Source: Cyclobacteriaceae bacterium | GTDB lineage: Bacteria > Bacteroidota > Bacteroidia > Cytophagales > Cyclobacteriaceae | Length of the DNA stretch: 24,572 bases | NCBI GenBank assembly: GCA_036515095.1 | Contig: DATBVZ010000665.1 | Location: forward strand, 1-24,572 | Direction of reading: 5' to 3' | Part shown: in pieces, positions 3,993-24,247 of the stretch | Layout of the letters: every line of letters starts with the position of its first letter | Numbering within the stretch: position 1 is the stretch's first letter | Notes under the pieces: generated by a model | Told to the model about the DNA's origin: nothing | The model's input: the letters and a program-made list of their open reading frames with translations, nothing else | Databases searched by the model: none | Made by a program: the position numbers and the translations under genes

Positions 3993-4080
3993 TCGCGCAC
4001 TTATCTCCCGGCACAATATTCTTGGCGTGTTTCCGGATAATATGTACATTCAAAAACCTAAAAACTTAACGTCATTAGTT

Positions 4081-4683
4081 ATGAAAGCGCTTCTTTCATG
4101 TGTTGCAACTGTGGCTATCCTGGTAACCCTGCAGGGCTTTGATCAGAATGATGGCTGGATCACCTTGTTCGATGGTAAAACCCTCAAGGGTTGGAAAGTG
4201 AATGAAAATCCCGGAACGTTCACCGTTGCTGACGGCATGATCGTAGCCTTTGGACCCAGGGCTCATCTTTTCTATGATGGGGAGGTCATGGACCATACGT
4301 TTAACGACTTTGAATGGAAGGCAGATGTAATGACCACACCGGGCTCCAACTCGGGAATGTATGTACACACCGCGTTCCTTGAGGAGGGATGGCCTTCGAA
4401 GGGCATTGAGATTCAGGTGAACAACTCACACAGCGACTGGCGCAGAACGGGCAGTGTGTATGCCTTGCAGGATGTCAAAGAGCCGCCTGCCAAAGACAAC
4501 GAATGGTTCACTCAGCACATTATAGTGAAAGGCAACACGATCACTGTAAAGGTAAACGGCAAGACCATCAACAAATACACCGACGCGGAAGGAAAGTTAA
4601 GCGGAGGTACGATAGCCTTGCAGGGTCATGACCCGGCGAGCAAAGTATTCTATAAGAATATTATGGTCCGGATGAGTAAATAA
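4081..4683 (+). CDS. DUF1080 (3-keto-disaccharide hydrolase/hydratase family) secreted protein
   Basis: WITLFDGKTLKGW, NSGMY, IEIQV, TGSVY and GTIALQGHDP motifs. ATG 4081 gives a clean signal peptide (MKALLSCVATVAIL); ATG 4042 is an alternative start. Confidence 0.88.
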   Translation: MKALLSCVATVAILVTLQGFDQNDGWITLFDGKTLKGWKVNENPGTFTVADGMIVAFGPRAHLFYDGEVMDHTFNDFEWKADVMTTPGSNSGMYVHTAFLEEGWPSKGIEIQVNNSHSDWRRTGSVYALQDVKEPPAKDNEWFTQHIIVKGNTITVKVNGKTINKYTDAEGKLSGGTIALQGHDPASKVFYKNIMVRMSK

Positions 4684-4685
4684 GG

Positions 4686-4713
4686 TTGAAGATTGAAGGG
4701 TTGAATAGTTGAA
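4686..4713 (+). repeat. Short tandem repeat with TTGAA core, 4 copies at 7-8 bp period, directly after the DUF1080 stop
   Basis: TTGAA at 4686, 4693, 4701 and 4709. Confidence 0.75.
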
Positions 4714-4731
4714 TAGAAGTTAAAATTAAAA

Positions 4732-6492
4732 GTGTTAGTAATCCCAAAACTTTCTGGTTTGGCGAAAGCGTTTTGCCGGCTTTGCCTATTGCCTGCTGCC
4801 CATTACCTACTCCTCATTGCCTACTGCCTGCTGTTATCGGGTTGTAATACAGCTTCAACCTCCGAGCATGAAATTGCCACCGATTCCGTTTCCATTGCAA
4901 ATGGACGTCAGTTGTTCGATCGCGATTGCAGTTCGTGCCATAACTTCAGACAGGATGGGATCGGTCCGCAACTGACAGGTATAGCTGGAGAAGTTTCCGC
5001 GGATTGGTTGCGCAGTTTTATCAGGAACCCGCAGGAGGTAATCAATTCCGGGGATGCACGCGCGCAAACACTGTTCACATCGTATCGTACGATCATGCCT
5101 TCATTTGCGCATTACTCGGACGAAGACGTCAACATGGTCATCGCATTTTTGAATTCCCGCAAGGAAAGGCCGGAGAGACGGCGCACCCGCAATCCGGATG
5201 CACTGGAAGATCCGATTCCTGAGGCCATACCCATGTCCGACCTGGTCGTGGGACTTGAAGAGATCACACAGATACCGCCTTCAGCCGAACCCCCTTTGCG
5301 CACCCGGATCGCCAAGCTCGACTTCAGGCCGGATACAAAGGAATTGTTCATGCTGGATCTGAGAGGCAAGCTTTATTATCTGGATAATGACCAGCCAGAA
5401 GTCTACATGGACATGGCAGCGGTACGGCCTGCCTTTATCAACACACCCGGACTGGCAACAGGTTTCGGCAGTTTTGCCTTTCATCCGGAATTCGGCAAGA
5501 ACGGGCTTCTGTACACCACGCACACCGAAGGCCCCGGGTCGGGAATAGCTGACTTCAGTTATAACGATTCTATTAAGGTCCTGCTTCAATGGGTGCTTAC
5601 CGAATGGAAGACGGATAAGCCGGAGGCCATTCCTTTTTCAGGGAAAGGGCGCGAGCTATTCCGGATCAACATGGTGCATTCGTTTCATGGGGTTCAGGAG
5701 ATAACCTTCAATCCCTTGTCGAAACCAGGCAGTGAAGACTATGGCCTGCTTTATATCGGGATCGGCGACGGATCCAGCGTGGAATTTGGATATCCGTTCC
5801 TGGTCCACTCCACGTCAACCATATGGGGAAGCATTGTTCGGATAGATCCGGCAGGAAGGAACAGCGCGAACGGGCAATACGGTATCCCCAGGACAAATCC
5901 CTTTGCCGGAAACAAAAAACCGAACGTACTTGGTGAGATCTACGCCTACGGTTTCAGGAATCCCCACCGGATAACCTGGAGCAGGTCGGGTCAGATGCTG
6001 GCGTCGAATATAGGCCACCACAATATCGAATCGCTGAACCTCATTCTTCCCGGTCACGATTACGGCTGGCACATCCGTGAGGGCACCTTCGTGATGGATG
6101 CCTACACTAACATGAGCGACGTGTTTGCATTGCCGCCTGATGACTCTATCTATCACGTTACCTATCCGGTAGCCCAATATGATCATGATGAAGGTAATGC
6201 GATTTCCGGCGGATATGAGTATTGGGGGAAGGTGGTCCCTGAACTGATAGGCAAATACATTTTCGGTGATATCGTTAGCGGCCGCTTGTTTTATGTAGAG
6301 ATGAACGACCTGAAGTTGGGAAGCCAGGCGCCCATCCGCGAATTCCAGGTCTCCCTCAACGGCGAACGGAAGACCTTCCCGCAAATTTGCGGGAATAACC
6401 GTGTCGACCTTAGATTCGGCCGCGACGCGCAGGGGGAGCTCTATGTTTTTACCAAACCGGACGGGAAGGTATACAAAATAATGAGTGAATGA
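4732..6492 (+). CDS. Lipoprotein: N-terminal cytochrome c fused to a PQQ-dependent glucose/sorbosone dehydrogenase (GSDH) beta-propeller
   Basis: Lipobox LLSGC, haem motif CSSCH with a downstream Met (IMPSF), and GSDH motifs YIGIGDG and IYAYGFRNPHRITW. GTG start; the exact start is uncertain. Confidence 0.85.
   Translation: MLVIPKLSGLAKAFCRLCLLPAAHYLLLIAYCLLLSGCNTASTSEHEIATDSVSIANGRQLFDRDCSSCHNFRQDGIGPQLTGIAGEVSADWLRSFIRNPQEVINSGDARAQTLFTSYRTIMPSFAHYSDEDVNMVIAFLNSRKERPERRRTRNPDALEDPIPEAIPMSDLVVGLEEITQIPPSAEPPLRTRIAKLDFRPDTKELFMLDLRGKLYYLDNDQPEVYMDMAAVRPAFINTPGLATGFGSFAFHPEFGKNGLLYTTHTEGPGSGIADFSYNDSIKVLLQWVLTEWKTDKPEAIPFSGKGRELFRINMVHSFHGVQEITFNPLSKPGSEDYGLLYIGIGDGSSVEFGYPFLVHSTSTIWGSIVRIDPAGRNSANGQYGIPRTNPFAGNKKPNVLGEIYAYGFRNPHRITWSRSGQMLASNIGHHNIESLNLILPGHDYGWHIREGTFVMDAYTNMSDVFALPPDDSIYHVTYPVAQYDHDEGNAISGGYEYWGKVVPELIGKYIFGDIVSGRLFYVEMNDLKLGSQAPIREFQVSLNGERKTFPQICGNNRVDLRFGRDAQGELYVFTKPDGKVYKIMSE
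4782..4830 (+). repeat. Seven tandem degenerate heptamers (consensus YTGCCTR) inside the signal-peptide coding region
   Basis: TTGCCTA TTGCCTG CTGCCCA TTACCTA CTCCTCA TTGCCTA CTGCCTG. Confidence 0.8.
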
Positions 6493-10134: not shown

Positions 10135-11046
10135 TCAACGAACACCCTTCACTTTCATCCTCAATACATATACCGACTTTGATGCAGTGATAAACAAAGT
10201 CTTCCCGTCCTTGCCGCCGAAACAGACATTGGCGGTCCAGGGTTCGTCGACGGAAATGTATTCGATCTGTTTTCCCCTTGAATTGAAAACGGTAATGCCG
10301 CGGCCCGTGATGTACACGTTGCCCTTGTTATCCACGGTCATTCCATCAGAACCCATTTCAGTGAAAAGTCGCCGGTCCGACAGCGTGCCCTCCGGGTTAA
10401 TACGGAACGCATACGTTTTCTTATCGTTGATATCCGCTACATACAGCGTTTTGCCATCCCGCGCGCCCACGATTCCATTGGGCCTGACAAATCCTGTCGC
10501 GGCCACGGACAATGTTTTTCTATCGGGGGAAACGTAGTAGACGTCTTCTTCTTCTATTTCCCGGGTTGTTCTTGTCCAATAGTCCCGCTTGTAGAAGGGA
10601 TCAGTAAAATAAATCCCGCCCCTGGAGTCCACCCACAAATCATTCGGACCGTTGAGTTTCTTTCCTTCGAAATCCCTGACCAGCACCGTAACGTTCTTAT
10701 TCCGGTCGATCAGCCACAACTGGTTGTCCCGGTCGGCGCACGAGATCAGATTTCCATCGTTGTCAAAATACAGTCCGTTTGACCGCCCTGCGCCTTCCAT
10801 AAATACCGTCATCGCCCCATCCGTTGACCACTTCATGATCCGGTCATTGGGCTGGTCGGTGAAGAACACGTTTCCCTCCGGATCGACCGCGGGTCCTTCT
10901 GTGAATTTGAATTCCGACGATAGTTTGGTAAGCACAGCGTCTTTGGCTATTACGTTGCCGACCGCTGCTTTTTCCTGTTGTGCCACAGCGATATTCCAGT
11001 GTACTGCCAGCAGCAGAAGGGGAATTAAGGACAACGAGCATTTCAT
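10135..11046 (-). CDS. SMP-30/gluconolactonase/LRE family protein, secreted
   Basis: FTEGPAVD, GRSNGL, LNGPNDL, RPNGI, GSDGMTVD and WTANVCFGG motifs. ATG 11046 gives a signal peptide (the track starts at TTG 11052). Confidence 0.92.
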   Translation of the reverse strand: MKCSLSLIPLLLLAVHWNIAVAQQEKAAVGNVIAKDAVLTKLSSEFKFTEGPAVDPEGNVFFTDQPNDRIMKWSTDGAMTVFMEGAGRSNGLYFDNDGNLISCADRDNQLWLIDRNKNVTVLVRDFEGKKLNGPNDLWVDSRGGIYFTDPFYKRDYWTRTTREIEEEDVYYVSPDRKTLSVAATGFVRPNGIVGARDGKTLYVADINDKKTYAFRINPEGTLSDRRLFTEMGSDGMTVDNKGNVYITGRGITVFNSRGKQIEYISVDEPWTANVCFGGKDGKTLFITASKSVYVLRMKVKGVR

Positions 11047-11151
11047 GCGCAATTTGTTCGGCCTGTGCCAGGGTCTGCAATGTAGTAAGGACAGTATGGT
11101 ATAGCAAGATGAAATATTCCGATGGTCACGCTACCACGAACAAAGAAATTC

Positions 11152-12090
11152 CTATTGACCTGCGCGTTCATGACTTGTTTCCTTCGGAAAATGCACGCAG
11201 ACTTCATCGTGCATGGTGTAGAGACGGTACTGGTAGCCGTCGTGCACCAGGATCGGGCTGGATTTATTTTCGCGCATGATAGGATTGTGCTCGTATTTGG
11301 TCCAACGAATGAGATCATTGGAAATGGCTACGCAACTGGTCCATTCATGCCAGTCCTCATACGCGGTGGCGTGGTAATAGGCATAATACTTTCCCTCATG
11401 ATATACGATCTGGTTTACGGCCACACCGTATTGATCATACGTTTCAGGTCCTGTTTTTATCACCGGTTCATCCTGGATGTTTGTCCACGTCAGGCGGTCC
11501 GTTGAACGGGCCAGCCATATGCCCCGGTCGCCGCGTTCATAGAAGAGGTACCAGACTCCGTCTTCAATCCACACGGTTGGTGTGCCATAAGGACCGTTGT
11601 CAATCGGGTTGCCATTGACCTTCCGGACATCCAGGGGACCGTATTCCTTCCAATTTACACGATCGGGAGACGTGAGCATATGGGCGATGTCGTCAGTGCC
11701 TTCCGCAAACATGTAGTAGAGGCTATCGGACTTAACAACCATTATGTCCTCAACCCAGCCGGAATCAACGATCGGATTTTCCGCATAGCGTGTCCATACC
11801 AGCCCATCCGGCGAGGTGGCATAACCCAGGTGCATCGACTCTTCTGGTCCTTCGCGGAAACCGGTGTACCACATGTGGTATTGTCCCTCTTCCCGGAGTA
11901 TAAATCCGCGTTCACGGATTTTCTGGTCCCAGGTATCTGTGCCCGTGCCTTTGAAGACGGGATTTTTTTCGTAGGAAGTAAAGTCAAGAATTTCCGAAGG
12001 ATACCGGACGGATCCGGGCCCTTTTTCCTGCGGGTTTGGTTGCCTGCATCCGGCAGCCACCAGTACAAACAGTACGATAAATCCTTTCAT
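11152..12090 (-). CDS. Lipoprotein with a five-bladed beta-propeller glycosidase/phosphorylase fold (GH43/32/117/130-like); family not assigned
   Basis: Start moved to ATG 12090 (MKGFIVLFVLVAAGC lipobox). Blade repeats: YATSPDGLVWTRYAENPI, LTSPDRVNWKEYG, LARSTDRLTWTNIQDEPVI, AISNDLIRWTKYEHNPI. Confidence 0.78.
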   Translation of the reverse strand: MKGFIVLFVLVAAGCRQPNPQEKGPGSVRYPSEILDFTSYEKNPVFKGTGTDTWDQKIRERGFILREEGQYHMWYTGFREGPEESMHLGYATSPDGLVWTRYAENPIVDSGWVEDIMVVKSDSLYYMFAEGTDDIAHMLTSPDRVNWKEYGPLDVRKVNGNPIDNGPYGTPTVWIEDGVWYLFYERGDRGIWLARSTDRLTWTNIQDEPVIKTGPETYDQYGVAVNQIVYHEGKYYAYYHATAYEDWHEWTSCVAISNDLIRWTKYEHNPIMRENKSSPILVHDGYQYRLYTMHDEVCVHFPKETSHERAGQ

Positions 12091-12192
12091 AGAGCAGGTT
12101 TCGCAGTCAAAAATCGGGGTTGTTCCATTGCCTAGTGCCAACTTTTCGCGTTCTTGAGAGCAGGGAACAAAATACACAAATCGGAGTAAGAT

Positions 12193-13533
12193 ATGAAACG
12201 CAGAAAATTCATTAAGGGCACGGGTGCAGCGCTCGCAGGAACAGTTTTGGCACATGCGGGAGTGATGAGTGCCGCGGCCAGTTGCATGCTTGCCGACAAA
12301 CTCAACATTGGCGTGATCGGATGCAATGGCATGGGATGGTCAAACACAAACTCGTTGTTGAAGATGAAGGATGTGGATCTGGTTGCGATTTGCGATGTGG
12401 ATGACAACGTGGTTCAGCAACGGGTAGCCGACTATAAGAAACTGAGGAATAATAAACCGAAAACATACAAAGACTATCGTGAACTACTCAATAACCAGGA
12501 GATCGATGCTGTTGTGATCGGCACGCCGGACCATTGGCATTGCCGGATCATGGTCGATGCCGTAAATGCCGGGAAGCATGTATATGTGGAAAAACCCATT
12601 GCAAACAGCATCGAGGAAAGCCGGATCATGGTAGCTGCCCAGGAAAAAACCGGGAAGGTGGTACAGGCCGGGCAATGGCAGCGAAGCGGACCGCACTATA
12701 GAAAGGCCATTGAGATCGTGCAATCTGGTGTCCTTGGCAGGATCCGTCTTGTCAAGGTGTGGGCTTACCAGGGATGGATGAAACCGGTTCCCGTAGTTGC
12801 CGACTCAACCCCGCCGGCTGGAGTCGACTATAAGTTCTGGCTCGGTCCAGCCCCTGAGAGACCGTTTAACCAGAACCGTTTCCACTTTAATTTCCGGTGG
12901 TTCTGGGATTATGCGGGCGGCTTGATGACCGACTGGGGTGTGCACGAAATCGATATTGCTTTATATGCCATGCAGACGGAGTCGCCGATTTCCGTTATGG
13001 CGTCGGGCGGCAAGCTGGCTTATCCCGATGATGCCTCTGAAACACCCGATACACTACAGACCGTCTTTCAATACAAAGATTTCAATATGCTCTGGGAACA
13101 TGCCACGGGCATTGACAATGGTCCTTATCATCGTACCGAGGGCATAGCATTTATTGGAAACAACGGTACCCTCGTGGTAAATCGGGGTGGTTATGAAGTG
13201 CTGGTAGAAAACGAATCAGAAGGTTATTCCAGCACGGGCAAACCGAAGATGGAACTTATAGAAACCTATGCCAAACCTGCCGAACTAAATTACCTGGACC
13301 TGCACACGCAGAATTTTGTGGAAGCCGTGCGGAAGAACAGTCAGGAAGCGCTCAATACACCTATCCGTTCCGGAAGTATTGCAGCAATAAACGCCCACAT
13401 GGGCAACATTGCCTATAAGACCGGGAAAAAGGTCTTCTGGGACGAGAAGAGCAATGGCTTCGTTGACAACACCGCCGCAAATGACCTGATCACCCCGGAG
13501 TACCACAACGGATGGAAGATCCCCGTTGTATAG
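12193..13533 (+). CDS. Tat-exported Gfo/Idh/MocA family oxidoreductase
   Basis: MKRRKFIK twin-Arg signal, GVIGCNGMG Rossmann motif, IGTPDHWH, HVYVEKP and GGLMTDWGVH. Confidence 0.93.
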   Translation: MKRRKFIKGTGAALAGTVLAHAGVMSAAASCMLADKLNIGVIGCNGMGWSNTNSLLKMKDVDLVAICDVDDNVVQQRVADYKKLRNNKPKTYKDYRELLNNQEIDAVVIGTPDHWHCRIMVDAVNAGKHVYVEKPIANSIEESRIMVAAQEKTGKVVQAGQWQRSGPHYRKAIEIVQSGVLGRIRLVKVWAYQGWMKPVPVVADSTPPAGVDYKFWLGPAPERPFNQNRFHFNFRWFWDYAGGLMTDWGVHEIDIALYAMQTESPISVMASGGKLAYPDDASETPDTLQTVFQYKDFNMLWEHATGIDNGPYHRTEGIAFIGNNGTLVVNRGGYEVLVENESEGYSSTGKPKMELIETYAKPAELNYLDLHTQNFVEAVRKNSQEALNTPIRSGSIAAINAHMGNIAYKTGKKVFWDEKSNGFVDNTAANDLITPEYHNGWKIPVV

Positions 13534-15390: not shown

Positions 15391-16320
15391 TCACACAACC
15401 TCACTCACCACCTTTTTCATTTTTTCCAGACCGGTCCTGGCAACGGTAAGCGGATCCTGTGCCCAGTAGTCGCGGTTGAAAAGTTCGAGCGACAGGATCT
15501 TTTGGCCACTCATATTCTTCAGGTGAGTAAGGAGTTGTTTCAGGGGAGCTACGCCATCGCCGGGATAGATGCGGTCTCTGTCCTGCAGCTGCTCGCGCGG
15601 AATGGACCCTGGGTAGTCATTCATGTGAAAGATCTCCACGACACTGCCGTCCAGCATCTTCATGCAGTCAAACCCGGAGTTGCCGCGGTGCAGGTGGTAA
15701 ACGTCTGCCAGAATACGGACACCTGGATCGTTCGCCACTGCCGCTGCCATCAGTGCCTGCCCAAGGTGATAGAACACGGACGCTCCCCAGACTTCAAGCT
15801 GAGGAGTAACGCCGGTCTGACGACCAAGGTCAAGGAGTTCCTTGTATCGCTGTCCCACTTTATACAGATCGGGAGCAGTGGTGACTCCCGCAGCGGGCGC
15901 CGCAATGCGCGGGCAGTCGAGAGCAGCCATGATCTCCATTTCCTCTTTCATCTGAACAAACCCTGCCTTGCGCTTTTCGTCATCATCGGTCATCCACGGA
16001 GCGAACCCGATGGCATTGACAACAGGCAGTTTGCTGTCGGTCGTCAGCTTTCTTAACGCGCTCAGTGATTTGCCGCTATCCATGTACGCCCGGAGATCTC
16101 CGATCCATACTTCAATGCAGTCGTAGCCGGCACGGGCCGCGATGTCAATGTATTTCTCGACACCCAACTTTTGTCCGCTGATGGTGCTGGTGTTCAAGGA
16201 AAACGTAAACTTGTCTTTCTTTTGAGCGGCGGAATCGCCTCCGGCAGAATAACCCAATGGTCCCATCAATGACAGTCCGGCAGCGACAGATGCTGTTTTC
16301 AGGGCGTCTCTTCTTTTCAT
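15391..16320 (-). CDS. Tat-exported sugar phosphate isomerase/epimerase (AP_endonuc_2, xylose-isomerase-like TIM barrel)
   Basis: MKRRDALK Tat signal; metal-ligand motifs PQLEVWG, LADVYH, IFHMND, YPGDG and LSLELFN. Confidence 0.9.
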   Translation of the reverse strand: MKRRDALKTASVAAGLSLMGPLGYSAGGDSAAQKKDKFTFSLNTSTISGQKLGVEKYIDIAARAGYDCIEVWIGDLRAYMDSGKSLSALRKLTTDSKLPVVNAIGFAPWMTDDDEKRKAGFVQMKEEMEIMAALDCPRIAAPAAGVTTAPDLYKVGQRYKELLDLGRQTGVTPQLEVWGASVFYHLGQALMAAAVANDPGVRILADVYHLHRGNSGFDCMKMLDGSVVEIFHMNDYPGSIPREQLQDRDRIYPGDGVAPLKQLLTHLKNMSGQKILSLELFNRDYWAQDPLTVARTGLEKMKKVVSEVV

Positions 16321-16568: not shown

Positions 16569-17438
16569 TTACCTCGGCCTACTGCGATGCAAACAAGCGC
16601 ATCCGAACATTTCCCCGCCCCGGAGTACCTTATAGCGCTGTCCGACTTTTTCCGCTTCCCTGACAAATTCACTCACGTCGGCGGTATTAAATGTGAACAT
16701 ATCGTAATGACAGGGGATAACCCATCCCGCATTGATGGCACGTCCAAGCTCCGCCGCTTCCCTGCAATTGAGATTTCCGGCAACTCTCCGTGCAGGATCG
16801 TTGCCATTGATCGGAAGAATGGCGACATCCACGGAAAAGGGTCTTAGCAGATCGACCATGCCATCATACCAAAGTGTGTCTCCGCTGTGGTAGATCGTGC
16901 GATCGCCGAATTGGATAACGTATCCCATGAACCGGCAGTTGCCGTTCTCGTCACGTTCAATCTCGTTGTGCTTCGCCGGGACACCGGTAAAAGTGAATTC
17001 ACCTGCTGTTACGGATGATCCGTCCGTCAGGCCGGTCGGGAAATTCAATCCACATCCGGTTCTTTCGGATACAAACTGCCGGTTGGCTTCCGGGATAATG
17101 AACGTAATTCCCGGGCTATTTTTCAAAACAGGTATCAGCGTCTCTGCATCCAGATGGTCGGTATGATTATGACTTGATGTGACCACCGTGATATTCTTCA
17201 GTAATCCCGGGTCCACCACGCGTTCGCTCATTCGTACGTGCGGCTTTTCAGTCTGTGCATACTTTATGGTAAGGGAATCTGATAAGTACGGATCGATGAG
17301 CACACGTTGACCCCTCCACTGCAGTAAAAATCCGCTTTGACCGAGCCACCAGATATAGAAATTATCTTCATCCGGAACAAAGGCGTCCATCTCAGCGATC
17401 AGGGCCTCATCTTTCTTTATGGCCGGTATATGTTTCAA
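16569..17438 (-). CDS. MBL-fold metallo-hydrolase (UlaG/L-ascorbate-6-phosphate lactonase-like)
   Basis: WWLGQSGFLL, LIDPYLS, SSHNHTDHLD (HxHxDH), IYHSGDT, DVAILPING and IPCHYDMF. The proposed TTG start at 17438 overlaps the upstream TGA (TTGA); the track start at 17570 lies deep inside the upstream gene. Confidence 0.87.
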   Translation of the reverse strand: MKHIPAIKKDEALIAEMDAFVPDEDNFYIWWLGQSGFLLQWRGQRVLIDPYLSDSLTIKYAQTEKPHVRMSERVVDPGLLKNITVVTSSHNHTDHLDAETLIPVLKNSPGITFIIPEANRQFVSERTGCGLNFPTGLTDGSSVTAGEFTFTGVPAKHNEIERDENGNCRFMGYVIQFGDRTIYHSGDTLWYDGMVDLLRPFSVDVAILPINGNDPARRVAGNLNCREAAELGRAINAGWVIPCHYDMFTFNTADVSEFVREAEKVGQRYKVLRGGEMFGCACLHRSRPR

Positions 17439-18463
17439 AGTGTTTCCCTGACGATTTTTGCTCCGCTTACCATGTTCTTCAGCTTCAACCTGGCGGCCCA
17501 ACGGGCAGTCTGGCTCAGGCCGCAATCGGGAGCCACGGAGAAGCGATCGGCAGGAACAAACTGCAGGCAACGCCTGATCCTTTCCGCAACATCGTCGGGC
17601 GTTTCTATGTAGTAGTTCTTTACATCGACTATCCCCGCCGCTACGTGCATTTTTTCCCCGAAGACCTTTAGTAATTCAAGCTCGGCAAATTCACGGTTGG
17701 CCATCTCCACGTGGATCTCGTCTACGGTCAGATCGAGAAAATCCGGGAGCATCGGTTTGATACTGCGGTAGCCGACGGACCTTCCCCTGAAGTTCCCGAA
17801 GCACAGATGCGTACTTAACCTTGTTTTTCCGGTGATGGGTTTTACCGTGCGATTGAAAATATCGACAAAGCGCCTGGTGTCTTCCCGGTACGCGTAACAA
17901 CTCATGGAAGGTTCATCCACGGTGACCTCTTCGCATCCGGCCGCCACCAGGTCTTCAAGCTCTTTGCTTACGATGGGAAGCAGGGCCTCCGTGATTTCAT
18001 AGCGGTCTTTGTAGGTTTTGTTGGGCAGGAGTCGCCCGCTGAGGGTGTAGGGCCCTGGAATGCTTGCCTTCAACACGGGTCCCTTCGGAGCGAGCTTCTT
18101 CAGCCGCACGAATTCCTTTACTGCTCCCAATCCTTCCGGCGCATGAAGTTCGCCCACAATAGTATTCCTCCCCCGCTGGTCATGGGCCGGTGGACCAAAT
18201 TTGCGGGTTTCGGATTGGTTGTTCTCAATTCCTTTTATATAACCGTAAAAGGACAGGTTGAAATCCAGCCGGGTCTGCTCGCCGTCGGTAATAACATCCA
18301 GGCCGGCATTCACCTGATCGTGAATGGCGGCGACAACCGCGTCCTCAATCATCTCTTCAATGTCGGCTGCGCCAAACTTGTCCAGATTCTGTGAAGCAAA
18401 TTCCAACCATCCTGGAAAGGGATAACTGCCGATCACCGTTGTACGAATGGGAATTGATTGCAT
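17435..18463 (-). CDS. Cobalamin-independent methionine synthase II family (Meth_synt_2) single-barrel Zn enzyme; function uncertain
   Basis: TTVIGSYP, GLDVITDGEQ.R, VDEP, Zn ligands HLC (STHLCFGN), Glu in HVEMA and Cys in APDCG. At 342 aa it lacks the N-terminal folate-binding barrel of MetE. Confidence 0.88.
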   Translation of the reverse strand: MQSIPIRTTVIGSYPFPGWLEFASQNLDKFGAADIEEMIEDAVVAAIHDQVNAGLDVITDGEQTRLDFNLSFYGYIKGIENNQSETRKFGPPAHDQRGRNTIVGELHAPEGLGAVKEFVRLKKLAPKGPVLKASIPGPYTLSGRLLPNKTYKDRYEITEALLPIVSKELEDLVAAGCEEVTVDEPSMSCYAYREDTRRFVDIFNRTVKPITGKTRLSTHLCFGNFRGRSVGYRSIKPMLPDFLDLTVDEIHVEMANREFAELELLKVFGEKMHVAAGIVDVKNYYIETPDDVAERIRRCLQFVPADRFSVAPDCGLSQTARWAARLKLKNMVSGAKIVRETL

Positions 18464-18485
18464 GCTCTTCGATTTTTTGAGGTAG

Positions 18486-19271
18486 TTACTTTTTCATACC
18501 TACGCCGGCGTATAGCCTGGCTAGACGATGCGCGTGTTCGTCGTAGGCGCTTTCAAATAAGGATACGGCCCGTTCCTTTCCGACGATCGCTGCGCTGGTT
18601 AGCACCTTTGGAGGATCGCCGGCATCCGTCAACAACTTGGCTACTTCGGCTTTGATGCAGTTAATGAGCATGGCACCGCCTACCGTGGAACCCGGTGATA
18701 CAGGGGTATCCAACCCGGGAACGTGAACCATTGCATCACCCACGGGCGCACCGGTATCCAGTACGATGTCGGCAAAGTCGGTGAGCTTTTTGCCGTCACC
18801 GCGTTTGCTCTCGGTTTTTTCCAGGTGTGCCAGGGTGACCAGGGCTACAACCCGGATCTTGTTTTGCCGGAAAAGCTCGGCCACCTCAACGGGAACGTTA
18901 TTGCAGCCGCTGGATGATATCACCAGGGCAGAGTCCTTCGCGTTCAGGTCATAGTTGCGCAGTATGCGTTCGGCCAATCCCGAAACATTTTCCAGAAACA
19001 TGGCCTGACGCTGGCCGTTGGCACCGACGACGAGGTTGTGAAACGTGAGTGACAACTCTACTATCGGATTATAGCCCGGATAGGATCCGTATCGCGGCCA
19101 CATCTCCTCAACCATAATGCGGCTGTGGCCACTGCCGAATACGTGCACCATACGGCCGGAAAGTATGGTTTCGGCAAACCAGCGCGCGGTCTCTGTGATC
19201 TTATGCTGCTGCGCGGTAACGGTGTCAATGATTTCGCGGCACCGCTGCAGGTACATTTCCGTAAGACTCAT
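18486..19271 (-). CDS. SIS-domain protein, UPF0309/NagS-like
   Basis: VHVFGSGHS, PRYGS, FLENVSGLA, VISSSGCN.VPVE, DIVLDTGAPVGDA and SPGSTV. Confidence 0.87.
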   Translation of the reverse strand: MSLTEMYLQRCREIIDTVTAQQHKITETARWFAETILSGRMVHVFGSGHSRIMVEEMWPRYGSYPGYNPIVELSLTFHNLVVGANGQRQAMFLENVSGLAERILRNYDLNAKDSALVISSSGCNNVPVEVAELFRQNKIRVVALVTLAHLEKTESKRGDGKKLTDFADIVLDTGAPVGDAMVHVPGLDTPVSPGSTVGGAMLINCIKAEVAKLLTDAGDPPKVLTSAAIVGKERAVSLFESAYDEHAHRLARLYAGVGMKK

Positions 19272-20176
19272 ATGGCTGACAATTCTAATCCCTTGATTAC
19301 GTCTCCGGCATAACAGGCTGCGCCGATAGCCCCGGCCAAATCGCCTTGCTGTGCTTTTACGATCTCAACCCGGTTTCCACCCGCTCTCCATTCGTATTCG
19401 GCAACAAGCCTTTCGAGCGGTTCAAAGAGGTCCTTACCAGCCTCGGTGATGCCGCCGCCCAGCACAATGACTTCCGGAGAAAGGATGTTGGTGATCGAAA
19501 CTATACCTACCGCCAGTTTTCTTAGGGAGGTAGTCCAGACTTCGTTGGCAAAACCATCACCATTGCGCACAGCCTTCAACAACCCGTGTGTGGAAGAGAA
19601 CCTTCCCTGAGAGCGTTTCGACACGGTGGCATTGCCAATGGAATCCTCCAGGCTTCCCGGTGTGCCGGTTACCCCCGCGTCGCCCTGGTCGTTGATCACC
19701 ATATGCCCGATGTGACCGGCTTTGTTGAAAGCACCGAGGTACGGTTTACCATCGATCATGATCGCTCCGCCAACCCCCGTCCCCAGAGTAAGCATCACCA
19801 CATGTTTCCTGTCCTTTGCTGCGCCAAACTTTGCCTCGGCGATCATCGCAGCAACCGCATCGTTCAATACCACAGTTTCAATGCCGAGAAGATCTTTCCA
19901 AATAAGATTTTCGAGTCCCTGCATCCGCCCCGGCATTACCGCTATCGCCGAATGATCGGCGTTGGGCAGGCCGGGCGCGGCAATCCCAACCCGCGCCTGG
20001 TTGCCGGACTTCTTTCTCAGGTCGGCAACGATAGTGGCAATGGCATTTTTCCAAATGCGGCTGTCGCCATCATGCGTTGAAGTATATTGCTGATGCAATA
20101 CGGTCCCTGTTTTGTCCACCAACACGGCTTTTATCCGCGTGGCGCCAAGGTCAACTCCAATTTCGGCGGCTTCCAT
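19268..20176 (-). CDS. ROK family sugar kinase with atypical substrate and Zn motifs
   Basis: GVDLGAT, NDAVAAMIAEAKFGA, LTLGTGVGG, LGGGIT and AGAIGAA. Its TGA overlaps the SIS ATG by 4 nt. Confidence 0.9.
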   Translation of the reverse strand: MEAAEIGVDLGATRIKAVLVDKTGTVLHQQYTSTHDGDSRIWKNAIATIVADLRKKSGNQARVGIAAPGLPNADHSAIAVMPGRMQGLENLIWKDLLGIETVVLNDAVAAMIAEAKFGAAKDRKHVVMLTLGTGVGGAIMIDGKPYLGAFNKAGHIGHMVINDQGDAGVTGTPGSLEDSIGNATVSKRSQGRFSSTHGLLKAVRNGDGFANEVWTTSLRKLAVGIVSITNILSPEVIVLGGGITEAGKDLFEPLERLVAEYEWRAGGNRVEIVKAQQGDLAGAIGAACYAGDVIKGLELSAI

Positions 20177-20206
20177 CCCTTGTTCCCGATTTATGTTAAA
20201 CGCTTC

Positions 20207-21004
20207 TCATTCGTTAATCTGTCCATCGCTTACGCTCCAGGCACCATCCACCGCTACGACCTGCCCGGTGGTGAATTTTGAGGCTTCGCTCATAAAATAT
20301 ACCGCAAGTCCGTCGAGGTCGTCAGGACGGCCAATCCTTCCCCCGTCCAGTGGCTGTTTGGTTGTTGTAAATGACATGATCGCCTTGTCCCCGGCAGCGC
20401 GCTGAGCCATGGGCGTTTCGATCAGTCCCGGGGCGATCACGTTTATGCGTATGTTGTATTTCGCGTAGTACGACGCAATGGATTTGCTGAATCCTATAAC
20501 TGCAGATTTTGCCGCAGCATACGCGTGGGTTGTAAAGTATTGCGATGAAGGAGAGGTAGCAAGTACGGATCCCATATTCAGGATGGTCCCTGGTTTCTTG
20601 CGGTTGAGCAAATAATTGATCGCTGCCCGGTTGGAAAGCATGAGTGAGGTCAGGTTTAAGGCCAGTGTCTTGTTCCATCCGTCCAGTGACAGCTCGTGCA
20701 GCGGCCCGTCGCCAACTTGTCTGCCGCTGCCACCGGCAACGTGATACAATCCGTCGAAACCCCCGAATTCGTTATGGCATAGTCCGATGGCATTGGTGGC
20801 TGTTCCTTCTTCCACGGCATCTCCCTGAATAGCGATCGCCTTTTTGCCCAGGCGCGTTTGCGCTGCGTAGCTACTGGCATCATCCATCCCCACGATTACG
20901 ACCCTTGCTCCACTTTCAATGAATGCAGCGGCCGCTGAAAGCCCGATACCGGTGGTACCGCCGATGATCACTAACGATTTATTCTCCAGATGTATGCCCT
21001 TCAT
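20207..21004 (-). CDS. Classical SDR NAD(P)-dependent oxidoreductase
   Basis: IIGGTTGIG, NMGS, YAAAK (YxxxK), RINVIAPGLIETPM and FTTGQVVAVDG. Confidence 0.93.
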   Translation of the reverse strand: MKGIHLENKSLVIIGGTTGIGLSAAAAFIESGARVVIVGMDDASSYAAQTRLGKKAIAIQGDAVEEGTATNAIGLCHNEFGGFDGLYHVAGGSGRQVGDGPLHELSLDGWNKTLALNLTSLMLSNRAAINYLLNRKKPGTILNMGSVLATSPSSQYFTTHAYAAAKSAVIGFSKSIASYYAKYNIRINVIAPGLIETPMAQRAAGDKAIMSFTTTKQPLDGGRIGRPDDLDGLAVYFMSEASKFTTGQVVAVDGAWSVSDGQINE

Positions 21005-21214
21005 GGGTGTAGCACTGTCATTATTTCCTCAGCAATAATGCAGTATGAATTGGCATTAAGTTAAGGTAATCATTTGTTTTTTTGCCAACTTGGATGGCAT
21101 TTTAGTTGCCGGTTGTTTGGTGCAGCCTGACACAAAAACGGGCATAATTAGGTGTATTGTGTAAGGGCACATACCACCGGGCACAATGCCTGCAGTTTCA
21201 TTCACAATCAAAGC

Positions 21215-22276
21215 ATGCTGATGCGAATCTTTGTAACCGTTTTGATGCATGTGCTTCTTTGCCCGGATCTCCGTGGCCAGCCAAATGATCCGCCTTCATT
21301 CATTAAAGGAGTGTATGGCAATCCAGGTGCGTTATTGACAGAAGGGCATTCTTTCCGGTCACTGGGAGTGAATGCCGTCTTTGTGAGAAGCATTTCACTG
21401 GATGAATCATTGATGCGGTCGGCGAAGCAACAGGGCGTTCGTGTTTACGTGGAATTTCCAACCTTGAACGGGAAGGGATACGTGGAAGAACATCCTGAAG
21501 CATGGCCAGTCAATGAACGTGGTCAAAAATCCCCCGCCGCCGATTGGTTCATGGGTGTTTGCCCGACGGACCCGGATTTCAGGTCTTACCGGATGACTCA
21601 GCTGCGATCCATTCTAAGCTCTTTCGACGTAGACGGTATCTGGCTTGATTATCTCCACTGGCATGCGCAGTTTGAAACACCTGAACCAATTCTTCCGGAA
21701 ACCTGCTTCTGTGACCGCTGCATTAAACAGTTTGCAAATGCACAGGATCTTACCGTTCCGGAAGGCGAGACCGCATATCGAGCACACTGGATACGCTCCA
21801 ATCAGGATTCATCGTGGAGGGAATGGAGGTGCGGTATTGTAACGAACTGGGTAAGGGATATAGGGAACGAAGCAGATGCCTTGCGCCCTGGCATCTTGCT
21901 GGGCCTTTTTTATTGTGCGTGGTATCCTGATGATTTCGATGGCGCGCTTACGAGGATAATGGGCATCGATTTGAAAGCGCTGGCGGAAATTGCGGACGTA
22001 TTTTCGCCGATGCTATTCCATAGCATGATGGGCCGGTCTGTAACCTGGGTCAAGGAATATCCCGCGTGGCTTCGATCGTATGTCGGACCAGCGCCACTCA
22101 TCTGGCCGATTGTACAGGCGCACAACAAGCCTGGTATGGTCACCGCTAACGAATTCCGGCAGGTGATGATCAATGGATCGGCGCCGCCTTCCAGCGGGAT
22201 AATGATGTTTTCGGAGCAGTCGCTACTGGCCGATGATGAAAAGCTTCTGGTTTTGAAGTTACTTTATAACGACTAG
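21215..22276 (+). CDS. Secreted glycosyl-hydrolase-like 10 (GHL10/DUF187-type) TIM-barrel protein; tentative
   Basis: Signal peptide from ATG 21215 or 21221; GVCPTDP...FDVDGIWLDYLHW, CFCDRC and DVFSPMLFH resemble GHL10-type proteins. Confidence 0.65.
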   Translation: MLMRIFVTVLMHVLLCPDLRGQPNDPPSFIKGVYGNPGALLTEGHSFRSLGVNAVFVRSISLDESLMRSAKQQGVRVYVEFPTLNGKGYVEEHPEAWPVNERGQKSPAADWFMGVCPTDPDFRSYRMTQLRSILSSFDVDGIWLDYLHWHAQFETPEPILPETCFCDRCIKQFANAQDLTVPEGETAYRAHWIRSNQDSSWREWRCGIVTNWVRDIGNEADALRPGILLGLFYCAWYPDDFDGALTRIMGIDLKALAEIADVFSPMLFHSMMGRSVTWVKEYPAWLRSYVGPAPLIWPIVQAHNKPGMVTANEFRQVMINGSAPPSSGIMMFSEQSLLADDEKLLVLKLLYND

Positions 22277-22301: not shown

Positions 22302-23372
22302 ATGCTGCTGAATCTCACAGGTGGTTTTCTGGGAAGCGGTAAAACTACGGCCATTGCAGGCGCATGCCGGCAGTTGATGGCTGCCAACAGAACGGTGGGC
22401 GTGATCACCAATGACCAGGGTGAACAACAGGTGGATACGCTTTCGCTGGAGAATTTGGACATACCGGTACGCGAAGTGGCAAACGGTTGCTTTTGCTGCA
22501 ACTACGATCAGCTCGATGCGCATATCCGATCCCTGGAACTGCAACGGCCGCCGGATGTGCTCTTCGCGGAATCTGTCGGCACGTGCACTGATCTGATAGC
22601 AACAATCGCAAAACCCTTGAACCTTGATCGACCGGACATCAGTGTTGTCATTTCTGTTTTTGCCGATGCGGCCTTTCTGGCTTCTTTACTGGAAGGTACT
22701 TCCCTGTTTATTGAAGAGACGGTCCGCTATATTTATCGAAAGCAATTGGAGGAAGCCGACCTGTTGATAATAAATAAAGTTGACCTGGTACGGCCTCCGC
22801 AAAGAGAAAGAATAGCGGGCATGCTGGCTTCGGAGTATCCGGGTAAGACGGTTTTGTACCAGAACTCCAGAAAGGATTCGGACATAACCCGATGGATTGA
22901 ATTAGCCGGAAGTTGCCGGCCTGCACGGCGAGTATCCCTGGAACTGGATTACGCTGTCTACGGAGCAGGAGAAGCGCAGCTGGCCTGGCTTGACAAGAGG
23001 ATAAGCATAGTGGGCCAGGGTGGGGCAGTAGTGATTGCCCGCAGGATCATGGATGGCATATTCCGCCGCATTCAGGAGCAGCGATTGTTTATCGGGCATC
23101 TCAAGTTTTTTGTTGAAACGGAGCGGTGGAAAAAAAAGATCAGTTTTACTCCTTCCACGACCGATTTTCCTTTGTTGCCGGACGATCGTGACATAAGAAA
23201 TGTGAATATGGTCATTAATGCAAGAGTTCAAACCGATCCTCAACTGCTAACCGGAATAGTTGATGAAGTCATTGAACGTGCTTCACGGTCCGGCAATGTG
23301 ATCATCCCGGGCGACTGGTCGGCTTTCGTTCCGGGATATCCGAGGCCTGCGCGGAGGATAGTAGGTGAATGA
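22302..23372 (+). CDS. COG0523/CobW-P47K family G3E GTPase (putative metallochaperone)
   Basis: Walker A GGFLGSGKTT, ITNDQG, GCFCC metal motif, AESVGTC, QLEEAD and NKVD. The C-terminal domain contains GEAQLAWL and IGHLK. Confidence 0.9.
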   Translation: MLLNLTGGFLGSGKTTAIAGACRQLMAANRTVGVITNDQGEQQVDTLSLENLDIPVREVANGCFCCNYDQLDAHIRSLELQRPPDVLFAESVGTCTDLIATIAKPLNLDRPDISVVISVFADAAFLASLLEGTSLFIEETVRYIYRKQLEEADLLIINKVDLVRPPQRERIAGMLASEYPGKTVLYQNSRKDSDITRWIELAGSCRPARRVSLELDYAVYGAGEAQLAWLDKRISIVGQGGAVVIARRIMDGIFRRIQEQRLFIGHLKFFVETERWKKKISFTPSTTDFPLLPDDRDIRNVNMVINARVQTDPQLLTGIVDEVIERASRSGNVIIPGDWSAFVPGYPRPARRIVGE

Positions 23373-23788: not shown

Positions 23789-24247
23789 ATGGGTAAGTCA
23801 CGGGAAACATGGAATAAGAAAGAGACCGAGAAAAAAAAGCGCAAAAAGCGGATGGACAAGGAGCAAAAGAAGGAGGAGAGAAAGGCCAGCGCGAAAGAAG
23901 GCGGTACCTCCCTTGACGACATGATTGCCTATGTGGATGAGGACGGCAATATCACATCAACCCCTCCGGACCCTGCAAAAAAGAGGGTCATTAAGGAAGA
24001 GGACATAAGGATCGGTATCCCCAGACAGGATCCGTCGCAACAGCTGGACCCCATTCGGAAGGGAACAGTTTCATTCTTCAACGACTCCAAAGGATACGGC
24101 TTTATTAAGGATCACGAGACCCAGGAAAGTATTTTTGTTCACGCCAACGGACTGGTCGATCAGATCAGAGAAAATGATAAAGTAACCTTTGAAGTGGAAA
24201 TGGGTCACAAGGGACCGAATGCAGTTGGTGTAAAACTAATCCGCTAA
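23789..24247 (+). CDS. Cold-shock domain protein with Lys/Glu-rich N-terminal extension
   Basis: RNP-1 KGYGFI and RNP-2 IFVH, plus GTVSFFN and KGPNAV. The N-terminal MGKSRETWNKKE and YVDEDGNITSTPPDP motifs are typical of the Bacteroidota form. Confidence 0.93.
   Translation: MGKSRETWNKKETEKKKRKKRMDKEQKKEERKASAKEGGTSLDDMIAYVDEDGNITSTPPDPAKKRVIKEEDIRIGIPRQDPSQQLDPIRKGTVSFFNDSKGYGFIKDHETQESIFVHANGLVDQIRENDKVTFEVEMGHKGPNAVGVKLIR

Follow-up and report, generated by a model that had tools for sequence, protein, structure and literature searches.

The operon and the question it raises

What is a putative zinc enzyme of the methionine synthase fold doing among sugar enzymes? This question is raised by five genes of one orientation on contig DATBVZ010000665.1 of a Cyclobacteriaceae bacterium (source genome labelled G000, 92% complete). 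The window, by which we mean the whole stretch of 24,572 nucleotides (nt) under analysis, carries them at positions 16569-21004 on the minus strand, and according to the list of open reading frames (ORFs) they encode, in operon order, an SDR oxidoreductase, a ROK kinase, a SIS_2/UPF0309 protein, a single-barrel Meth_synt_2 protein (called MetE-like in the following) and an MBL-fold hydrolase. Almost all that is known of the MetE barrel concerns the transfer of methyl groups (or, in XecA, of an epoxide) to thiols. We find that the five genes form a real, horizontally spread cytoplasmic module. Its chemistry, each step of which we infer, would lead from a hexose or hexosamine over the 6-phosphate to a sugar acid. 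The features of the locus are the following.

20207-21004, minus strand: SDR oxidoreductase, first gene of the operon, 265 amino acids (aa), adh_short_C2 4e-49 (Pfam)
19268-20176, minus strand: atypical ROK-family sugar kinase, 302 aa, ROK (PF00480) 2.7e-52, overlapping the SIS start by 4 nt
18486-19271, minus strand: SIS_2/UPF0309 sugar-6-phosphate enzyme, relative of NagS and MurQ, 261 aa, SIS_2 1.7e-30
17435-18463, minus strand: single-barrel MetE-like putative zinc enzyme, 342 aa, Meth_synt_2 6.8e-31
16569-17438, minus strand: MBL-fold hydrolase, UlaG-like, probable sugar(-phosphate) lactonase, 289 aa, Lactamase_B_2 4.7e-22
21005-21151, no strand: divergent intergenic region 5' of the SDR gene, presumed promoter region, the sole long non-coding stretch upstream of the operon

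The intergenic gaps are 30, -4 (ATGA), 22 and -4 (TTGA) nt in operon order. The last of these is an overlap of the TTG start codon of the MBL gene with the TGA of the MetE-like gene. The MBL ORF is formally extendable to 17570; since the N-termini of 16 orthologues align at the residue encoded by the TTG, the shorter start is the correct one. A preliminary description of this locus had given the same gene order, orientation and gaps, and the ORF coordinates together with the Pfam and NCBIfam domains confirm it. It had also taken the five products as cytoplasmic, which agrees with an inspection of their N-termini: none of the five starts in a signal-like manner, and the adjoining xylose-isomerase-like and GFO genes begin with Tat-like RR motifs.

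Only the SIS protein among the five products passes an equivalog or curated cut-off of NCBIfam. Domain searches (Pfam, NCBIfam) of the window proteins found no gene for methionine, folate or corrinoid functions, as had been stated before, and our literature search gave no paper describing the gene combination, in line with the earlier remark that no characterised pathway has this gene set. In the upstream region, a single sigma-70-like match (21049-21020) is no better than chance, and a scan for promoters and terminators gave nothing above shuffled sequence. An Rfam search of the window and seven other loci matched no family, cobalamin and S-adenosylmethionine (SAM) riboswitches included. The 24 sequencing runs returned with matches are all DNA metagenomes of soil or sediment; RNA was not specifically sought.

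Conservation of the module in Bacteroidota

Gene order was compared at 80 loci from species-representative genomes of Chitinophagaceae, Cyclobacteriaceae, Saprospiraceae, Flammeovirgaceae and Sphingobacteriales, each with an orthologue of the MetE-like protein, which is 80-86% identical across these Bacteroidota families. Most of the loci come from related Chitinophagaceae, and shared ancestry contributes to the synteny. The MBL gene is present at 76, the SIS gene at 69, the ROK gene at 60 and the SDR gene (orthologues 61-78% identical) at 58 of the 80 loci. All five occur together at 55 loci, 53 of which have the same order and strand, and the complete set is found at 50 of the 55 loci having enough flank. 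This arrangement is far beyond chance. The flanks are conserved in the three closest genomes only (L002-L004), and therefore the five genes are the unit. At L011 and L022 the order is MetE-like-MBL-SDR-ROK-SIS, which points to two sub-modules, each of them intact. The gene-neighbourhood comparison proposed in the preliminary description thus finds conserved synteny.

Among 401 evenly sampled Bacteroidota genomes, seven carry a MetE-like orthologue, spread over three families, and all seven also hold SIS and MBL orthologues. The trio stays in the genome even in the unlinked cases, where the SIS gene (G286) or the MBL gene (G370) lies on a separate contig. We conclude that the cluster is accessory, horizontally mobile and under strong purifying selection.

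The core shared across phyla

A search seeded with P0121, a representative 65% identical, returned hundreds of proteins at 72-75% identity, named from Verrucomicrobiota, Caldilineaceae and Binatia. In Verrucomicrobiota the order is alpha/beta-hydrolase (esterase), SIS_2, MetE-like, MBL and N6_N4 methylase, with a GH20 and an SSF transporter gene upstream; in Caldilineaceae (Chloroflexota) it is GD_AH-type dehydratase, sulfatase, SIS_2 and MetE-like, without MBL. Compared with the window, the proteins of the other phyla are 70-72% (MetE-like), 65% and 48% (SIS) and 53% (MBL) identical. The invariant pair is SIS_2 plus MetE-like, and MBL is nearly constant. SDR and ROK are Bacteroidota-specific feeders, and the feeders differ by phylum (kinase and dehydrogenase, esterase, sulfatase). 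The five-gene operon of the preliminary description is hence a real unit in Bacteroidota, but only SIS_2 and the MetE-like protein, with MBL, make up the core across phyla. This MetE-like branch extends over three phyla and thousands of soil, sediment and freshwater metagenome copies. MetE-like homologues at 47% identity or below have unrelated neighbours and no SIS gene; those at 38-47%, from unrelated contexts, are uninformative for the present orthogroup.

It could be argued that the adjacency is meaningless and that an ordinary sugar operon was co-inherited with an unrelated methionine synthase paralogue. The dominance of related Chitinophagaceae among the 80 loci, by which synteny is partly shared ancestry, would speak for this. 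However, SIS and MetE-like adjoin in three phyla although the genes around them differ, there are overlaps of start and stop codons, the rearrangement at L011 and L022 leaves both sub-modules intact, and the orthologues co-occur even when unlinked. We thus regard a meaningless adjacency as very improbable.

In Verrucomicrobiota, a 445-aa N6_N4-type 'DNA' methyltransferase is encoded 8-18 nt after the MBL gene (L100-L102, 10948-12287; L086, 9939-11216), apparently co-operonic with SIS, MetE-like and MBL. Genes for GcvT, GcvH and a ferredoxin-reductase-like protein converge on it, and a link to a methyl cycle is possible.

The MetE-like protein

The MetE-like protein scores below all methionine synthase models: 212 against a cut-off of 406 bits for NF003317, which models core methionine synthases of archaea (Mes family unverified), 135.6 against 392 bits for NF006589 (MesD) and 78.9 against 929.95 bits for TIGR01371. 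Its nearest structure is MesD (3rpd, 1.2e-29). In an alignment to 3rpd and fungal MetE, the zinc ligands H219, C221, E253 and C314 are kept, and they are invariant in 16 orthologues. The homocysteine ligands S13 (IGSYP), E62 (DGEQTR) and D183 (DEP), equivalent to E. coli S433, E484 and D599, are conserved as well. Zinc and homocysteine ligand residues are the criteria for calling core methionine synthases (Price et al. 2021, PMC7857596). The protein had been described as a zinc enzyme, and the conserved ligands are consistent with a putative zinc site. The stress formerly laid on missing methionine genes holds insofar as none lie nearby, but with the homocysteine residues kept, homocysteine or methionine chemistry is not dismissible.

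With 342 aa and a single barrel, the protein differs from MetE, which has two barrels, about 750 aa and an N-terminal folate-binding domain. For MesA, MesB and MesC, the NF003317 score is below cut-off and a corrinoid gene is absent from the window. By score and architecture, the protein would thus belong to none of MetE, MesD and MesA-C, as far as tested, while sharing their predicted catalytic residues. A complex prediction for the MetE-like and MBL proteins gave no verdict and no support either way.

The kept residues bring up the reading that we deal with a fifth folate- and cobalamin-independent 'core' methionine synthase family, for which SIS_2, MBL and the lineage feeders would make the methyl (one-carbon) donor from a sugar phosphate. 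This would be analogous to the presumed role of MesX for MesD and would provide a B12-independent back-up to MetH. All residues used for predicting MesA-D are conserved, and the cross-phylum identity of 70-86% resembles that of MesD, which was defined at about 72% identity across phyla (to ACIAD3523) (PMC7857596). The partner genes are constant. Of 50 carrier genomes, 49 have MetH and none has canonical MetE, as opposed to MetE in 50 of the 401 genomes of the phylum sample, and G000 likewise has MetH without MetE. Since few members of the main carrier families have MetE anyway (1 of 21 and 0 of 12 genomes) and kin are non-independent, this anticorrelation is weak, and G370 holds both MetE and the cluster. 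The census is compatible with a back-up role and does not establish it. Further points against a methionine synthase are the absence of cobalamin and SAM riboswitches from the window and the seven other loci, the patchy distribution (7 of 401 genomes) and the lack of any known chemically plausible methyl donor derived from a sugar. Together with the replacement pattern described below, these points make a fifth synthase family quite unlikely in our view.

G000 contains MetH, AhcY and the bacillithiol gene BshC; MetE, LuxS and Pfs were not found in it. Nothing links bacillithiol to the cluster. Salvage of S-ribosylhomocysteine was dropped as a candidate, because G000 has AhcY but neither Pfs nor LuxS and hence no endogenous source of this compound. 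MesX (DUF1852, PF08908) was not found in G000, and the control genomes gave no match either. The MetH of G000 is split into two adjacent ORFs (contig C121:3235-6784), the homocysteine-binding part and the remainder, and a split MetH also occurs in most of the 50 carrier genomes.

Three more distant homologues deserve mention. At L090 (106-6905), a MetE-like protein 38-41% identical is encoded with GFO/IDH/MocA, SDR and adenylosuccinate-lyase-like genes, and at L098 (5803-8050) another of the same identity range lies beside an FAD_binding_3 monooxygenase gene under a LysR regulator. These non-methionine contexts suggest several unexplored functions in the MetE-like fold. The 44% identical P0124 (L088) has lost zinc ligands, with Gln for His and Asp for Cys, and has neither the DGE nor the DEP motif; it is probably a non-catalytic or differently functioning paralogue.

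The SIS, MBL, ROK and SDR proteins

The SIS protein passes NF002805 (UPF0309 sugar isomerase domain protein) with 262.3 bits at a cut-off of 135, and matches the structures 3cvj (1.5e-30) and NagS (9eol, 6e-25). Aligned to NagS, it keeps the essential residues H53, R64, E94 and D179 and the phosphate serines 54, 119 and 121, and has Met and Ala in place of the pocket residues S91 and N228. The roles of these NagS residues are described, and NagS yields an unsaturated aldehyde and binds 6-phosphogluconate tightly (PMC12680351). NagS orthologues are at least 58.7% identical within Streptomycetaceae, and homologues about 30% identical to NagS show no NagS activity (PMC12680351). The residues shared with NagS and MurQ would imply enolisation at C2 and beta-elimination at C3 of a sugar 6-phosphate. 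The protein is to be classed as UPF0309 but not as NagS. Since distant UPF0309 homologues proved inactive as NagS (PMC12680351), the former term 'NagS-type' can be retained for the presumed mechanism only.

The MBL protein shows no variation among 17 orthologues in the HxHxDH motif or in the His, Asp and His ligands further along. Its AlphaFold2 model (pLDDT 89.6) has UlaG (2wyl, TM 0.75, E 1e-20), 3bv6 and UPF0173 as best folds. It reaches 63 bits with the UlaG model NF008688, whose cut-off is 306, and no ula genes lie in the window. The modelled fold makes it a probable sugar(-phosphate) lactonase-type hydrolase, UlaG-like but not UlaG.

The ROK protein is below every NCBIfam equivalog cut-off. 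Compared with the glucokinase 3vgk, the catalytic N-D pair is kept, the ExGH motif reads H-I-G-H, and the zinc-binding motif CxCGxxGC is absent, three cysteines being replaced. For the SDR protein, which has the motifs TGxxxGxG and YxxxK, the best NCBIfam match is glucose 1-dehydrogenase (157 bits, cut-off 215). Phosphorylation by ROK, enolisation or elimination by SIS_2, sugar dehydrogenation by the SDR and lactone or ester hydrolysis by MBL are well supported as roles, the chemistry itself being predicted.

Module replacement and accessory genes

A SIS orthologue without the MetE-like gene occurs in three further genomes of the 401 (G330, G199 and G331). All three have the order SDR-ROK-SIS-FAD oxidoreductase (PF12831)-phosphotriesterase-family (PTE) lactonase, without MetE-like and MBL genes. 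The best model for this lactonase is phospho-furanose lactonase; the PF12831 flavoprotein has no characterised relative in PDB and NCBIfam searches. A KDPG/KHG aldolase and a 2-keto-3-deoxygalactonokinase (KDGal kinase) gene adjoin the cluster in G330, and an acid-sugar dehydratase of the enolase superfamily is encoded within it in G331. Both modules are present at L043, in the order SIS-FAD oxidoreductase-PTE-MetE-like.

Six further genomes of the sample have an MBL orthologue. In G299, G303 and G115, the gene of a cytoplasmic GFO/IDH/MocA dehydrogenase stands just upstream of the MBL gene in the same orientation; the two genes overlap in G299 and G303, and two ORFs lie between them in G115. 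These MBL orthologues are 52-57% identical to that of the window. The pair of G299 lies beside genes for a zinc-dependent alcohol dehydrogenase, an FAH-family protein and an SDR, as is typical of non-phosphorylative routes for deoxy-sugar acids, and G115 and G303 have an SDR and a 47-49% identical SIS gene nearby, in G115 together with a GntR/UTRA regulator. In G399, MBL is paired with a 46% identical MetE-like gene. What stands in the slot just upstream of the hydrolase is thus a GFO dehydrogenase in some clusters and a flavoprotein or the MetE-like protein in others. The pairing of MBL with GFO/IDH/MocA in sugar-acid clusters, in line with the UlaG-like fold, is why we read it as a lactonase, and it bears out the lactonase proposed in the preliminary description. 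That MBL orthologues work in ordinary sugar-acid clusters, that the MetE-like/MBL module is replaceable by an oxidoreductase plus a lactonase, and that the feeders vary by phylum (kinase, esterase, sulfatase) as catabolism would have it, all argue against a methionine synthase.

NagB/AgaI-like deaminase genes are found at 29 of the 80 loci. They comprise two orthogroups and occupy two sites, of which one lies between ROK and SIS and is read in the opposite direction, and the other lies between MetE-like and MBL and is read in the direction of the operon. They look independently recruited and tie the pathway to hexosamine-6-phosphates. The amino-sugar link suspected earlier is strengthened by them, by the GH20 gene in Verrucomicrobiota and by the GntR/UTRA regulator of the sister cluster. 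Besides, a LacY-like MFS transporter is encoded in the cluster at 13 of the 80 loci, a GNAT gene lies within the G370 cluster, and at 11 loci there is a Rieske oxygenase close to the glycine-betaine and stachydrine demethylases GbcA and Stc2 (362 bits to GbcA; 3vca, 1.6e-89).

The Rieske gene is the starting point of a reading in which the substrate is a methylated, most plausibly N-methylated, amino sugar. The MetE-like protein would move a methyl group from the amine of the sugar-6-phosphate, donated as a protonated or quaternary amine, to homocysteine and so form methionine; the remaining methyl groups would be removed oxidatively, SIS and the NagB-like proteins would deaminate or isomerise the hexosamine-6-phosphate, and SDR and MBL would form a parallel aldonate branch. 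By the published criteria (PMC7857596), the ligands of zinc and homocysteine are as complete as in genuine methionine synthases. The Rieske N-demethylase homologue lies in the cluster, with the LacY-like transporter, NagB/AgaI-like deaminases were recruited at two positions, and the FAD oxidoreductase of the sister clusters could be an oxidative dealkylase. The trio of methyl transfer, Rieske and flavin enzyme mirrors glycine betaine demethylation (PMC12478193). Yet the Rieske gene occurs at a minority of loci, probably of shared ancestry, the GFO/IDH/MocA dehydrogenase in the same position is no demethylase, and the PF12831 flavoprotein has no characterised relative to back a dealkylase. The constant SIS adjacency is not specifically explained, and we know of no abundant natural N-methyl hexosamine. 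Taken together, we consider methyl salvage doubtful.

The amino-sugar context also allows for a MetE-like enzyme that works without homocysteine. Its binding residues would then hold a 2-amino-2-deoxy-aldonate(-6-phosphate), which is an alpha-amino acid and would be made from a hexosamine by SDR, MBL and ROK. Zinc as a Lewis acid on a hydroxyl group would promote a deaminating dehydration to the 2-keto-3-deoxy-(phospho)aldonate. SDR, lactonase and kinase would indeed give such an acid, the NagB-like genes, GH20 and GntR/UTRA regulator fit an amino sugar, and the KDPG aldolase, KDGal kinase and acid-sugar dehydratases of the sister clusters, as well as the GD_AH dehydratase beside the Chloroflexota pair, would suit its product. 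Rieske enzymes of the GbcA/Stc2 type act on amino-acid betaines, and NagS binds 6-phosphogluconate tightly (PMC12680351). On the other hand, a Cys2-His-Glu zinc site is what typifies thiol alkylation in the MetE fold, the C2 of D-glucosaminate has the D configuration, a role of SIS on an aldonate is chemically awkward, and the reading as a whole has no precedent. Such an aldonate route appears unlikely to us.

A possible reaction sequence

The observations to be accounted for are the gene order, the synteny, the cross-phylum core, the residue conservation and the module replacement. The reading we favour, and hold only tentatively, is that the MetE-like protein adds a zinc-activated aminothiol to the carbonyl product of SIS and that MBL then hydrolyses the adduct. 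ROK would phosphorylate the sugar, and the SDR would act as a sugar dehydrogenase. SIS_2 would open the sugar-6-phosphate, enolise it at C2 and isomerise it or eliminate the C3 substituent, giving a reactive enal or 2-oxo-aldehyde. Acting directly on this product, the zinc site of the MetE-like protein would activate the thiol of homocysteine or a close aminothiol for addition to the carbonyl or enal carbon of the sugar, and the resulting adduct would turn into an acyl or ester species. The translationally coupled MBL, as a UlaG-like lactonase or esterase, would hydrolyse the acyl or ester species, or a lactone, to the free acid and thus regenerate the thiol. Such a route would be a glyoxalase-like, non-oxidative counterpart of the pairs of dehydrogenase and lactonase (GFO and MBL, FAD oxidoreductase and PTE) found in the related clusters. 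It would explain why the thiol site is conserved, why sugar-acid genes lie nearby and why modules are replaced as they are, and also the coupling to MBL and the adjacency to SIS.

Several points weigh against the thiol adduct. To our knowledge, reactions of this kind are performed by no MetE-fold enzyme, and homocysteine would be out of the ordinary as a catalytic thiol. The MBL protein resembles UlaG and UPF0173 and not glyoxalase II specifically. The argument from the shared slot is one of gene position in a handful of lineages, and with both modules present at L043 they may be sequential and not alternative. It may be the SDR rather than the MetE-like protein that provides MBL with its lactone, in which case the step of the MetE-like protein would have no explanation. 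Finally, the GbcA/Stc2-like Rieske gene at 11 of the 80 loci points to methyl chemistry, for which the thiol adduct offers no explanation.

Any of the candidate readings, if true, would mean new enzymology, whether a thiol assists in oxidising the sugar, methyl groups are salvaged from a modified sugar, or methionine is made by a new route independent of B12. A fifth synthase would be the second case after MesD/MesX in which the methyl group of methionine is drawn directly from central carbon metabolism. What matters in each case is that a very strongly conserved branch of the MetE barrel is firmly tied to a sugar-phosphate enzyme of the MurQ/NagS type and to a probable lactonase. The result would correct the automatic label 'methionine synthase' on MetE-like proteins, a label which affects the predicted B12 dependence and methionine auxotrophy of abundant environmental Bacteroidota and Verrucomicrobiota. 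The replacement pattern (MetE-like/MBL, GFO/MBL, FAD oxidoreductase/PTE) provides a concrete experimental handle.

Surroundings of the operon

Divergent from the operon, a 374-aa protein with only sub-threshold GHL10/GHL6 glycosyl-hydrolase-like matches is encoded at 21152-22276 (plus strand); no counterpart was detected at this place in L002-L004. Beyond it lies the gene of a CobW/COG0523-type GTPase (22302-23372, plus strand; cobW 3.5e-26, with weak matches to the zinc chaperone ZigA), which adjoins the SDR gene in L002-L004. The GTPase could be a zinc chaperone for the zinc enzyme or enzymes of the operon, or its proximity is coincidental.

Three segments of the window (4027-6492, 10135-13533 and 15391-16320) hold exported oxidative-glycan genes, conserved together with the operon only in L002-L004. 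They encode a DUF1080/3-keto-disaccharide hydrolase, a GSDH-cytochrome c fusion, an SMP-30 gluconolactonase, a GH43-like protein, and a GFO/IDH/MocA oxidoreductase and a xylose-isomerase-like barrel, both with Tat signals. This set resembles the periplasmic 3-keto-glycoside route. The listed starts of the GH43-like (11152-12255, minus strand) and GFO (12193-13533, plus strand) genes overlap by 63 nt; the true start of the former is probably further downstream, as its N-terminus looks non-native. Elsewhere the window carries leuA and, at 23789-24247 (plus strand), the gene of a cold-shock domain protein whose N-terminus bears an unusual extension of about 90 residues, highly charged and rich in Lys and Glu.

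Comparison with known systems

Among core methionine synthases, MesA, MesB and MesC take the methyl group from a corrinoid protein in strictly anaerobic hosts, whereas the hosts of the MetE-like protein are Bacteroidota of soil, sediment and freshwater. The likeness to MesD/MesX is closer. Both systems have a single barrel of the MetE C-terminal type of about 340 aa, the same zinc and homocysteine ligands, high conservation across phyla, non-corrinoid partner genes always alongside, and co-occurrence with MetH. In contrast to MesD, the MetE-like protein lacks the MesD-specific insertion carrying Tyr226, and it is accompanied, amid carbohydrate genes, by a sugar-phosphate enzyme of the SIS_2 family and an MBL hydrolase.

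With the GlcNAc-6-phosphate (N-acetylglucosamine-6-phosphate) dehydratase NagS and the MurQ etherase, the SIS protein has in common the SIS_2/UPF0309 fold, the essential residues and the three phosphate-binding serines. It differs from NagS in that the match is distant, residues of the GlcNAc pocket are changed and the dmdR1 synteny is missing. The MBL protein comes closest in fold to UPF0173 and to UlaG, the L-ascorbate-6-phosphate lactonase, and shares the full binuclear metal motif and a sugar-phosphate operon context; it is about 21% identical and shorter, and ascorbate (ula) genes do not accompany it.

Routes of the Entner-Doudoroff and De Ley-Doudoroff type consist of dehydrogenase, lactonase, dehydratase, kinase and aldolase. 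The window operon agrees with them in the glucose-1-dehydrogenase-like SDR and the lactonase, and the sister clusters do so in KDPG aldolase, KDGal kinase and enolase-type dehydratase. The dehydratase and aldolase families of these routes are absent from the window operon, and SIS_2 and MetE-like enzymes are part of no described variant of oxidative sugar-acid routes.

As for the glyoxalases, glyoxalase I has the VOC fold and works with glutathione, bacillithiol or mycothiol, and the MBL protein stands outside the glyoxalase II subfamily. Glyoxalase II belongs to the same superfamily as MBL. The likeness would be one of functional analogy only: in both systems a 2-oxo-aldehyde would be taken up by a metal enzyme together with a thiol, and a hydrolase of the MBL fold would then set free the acid and the thiol.

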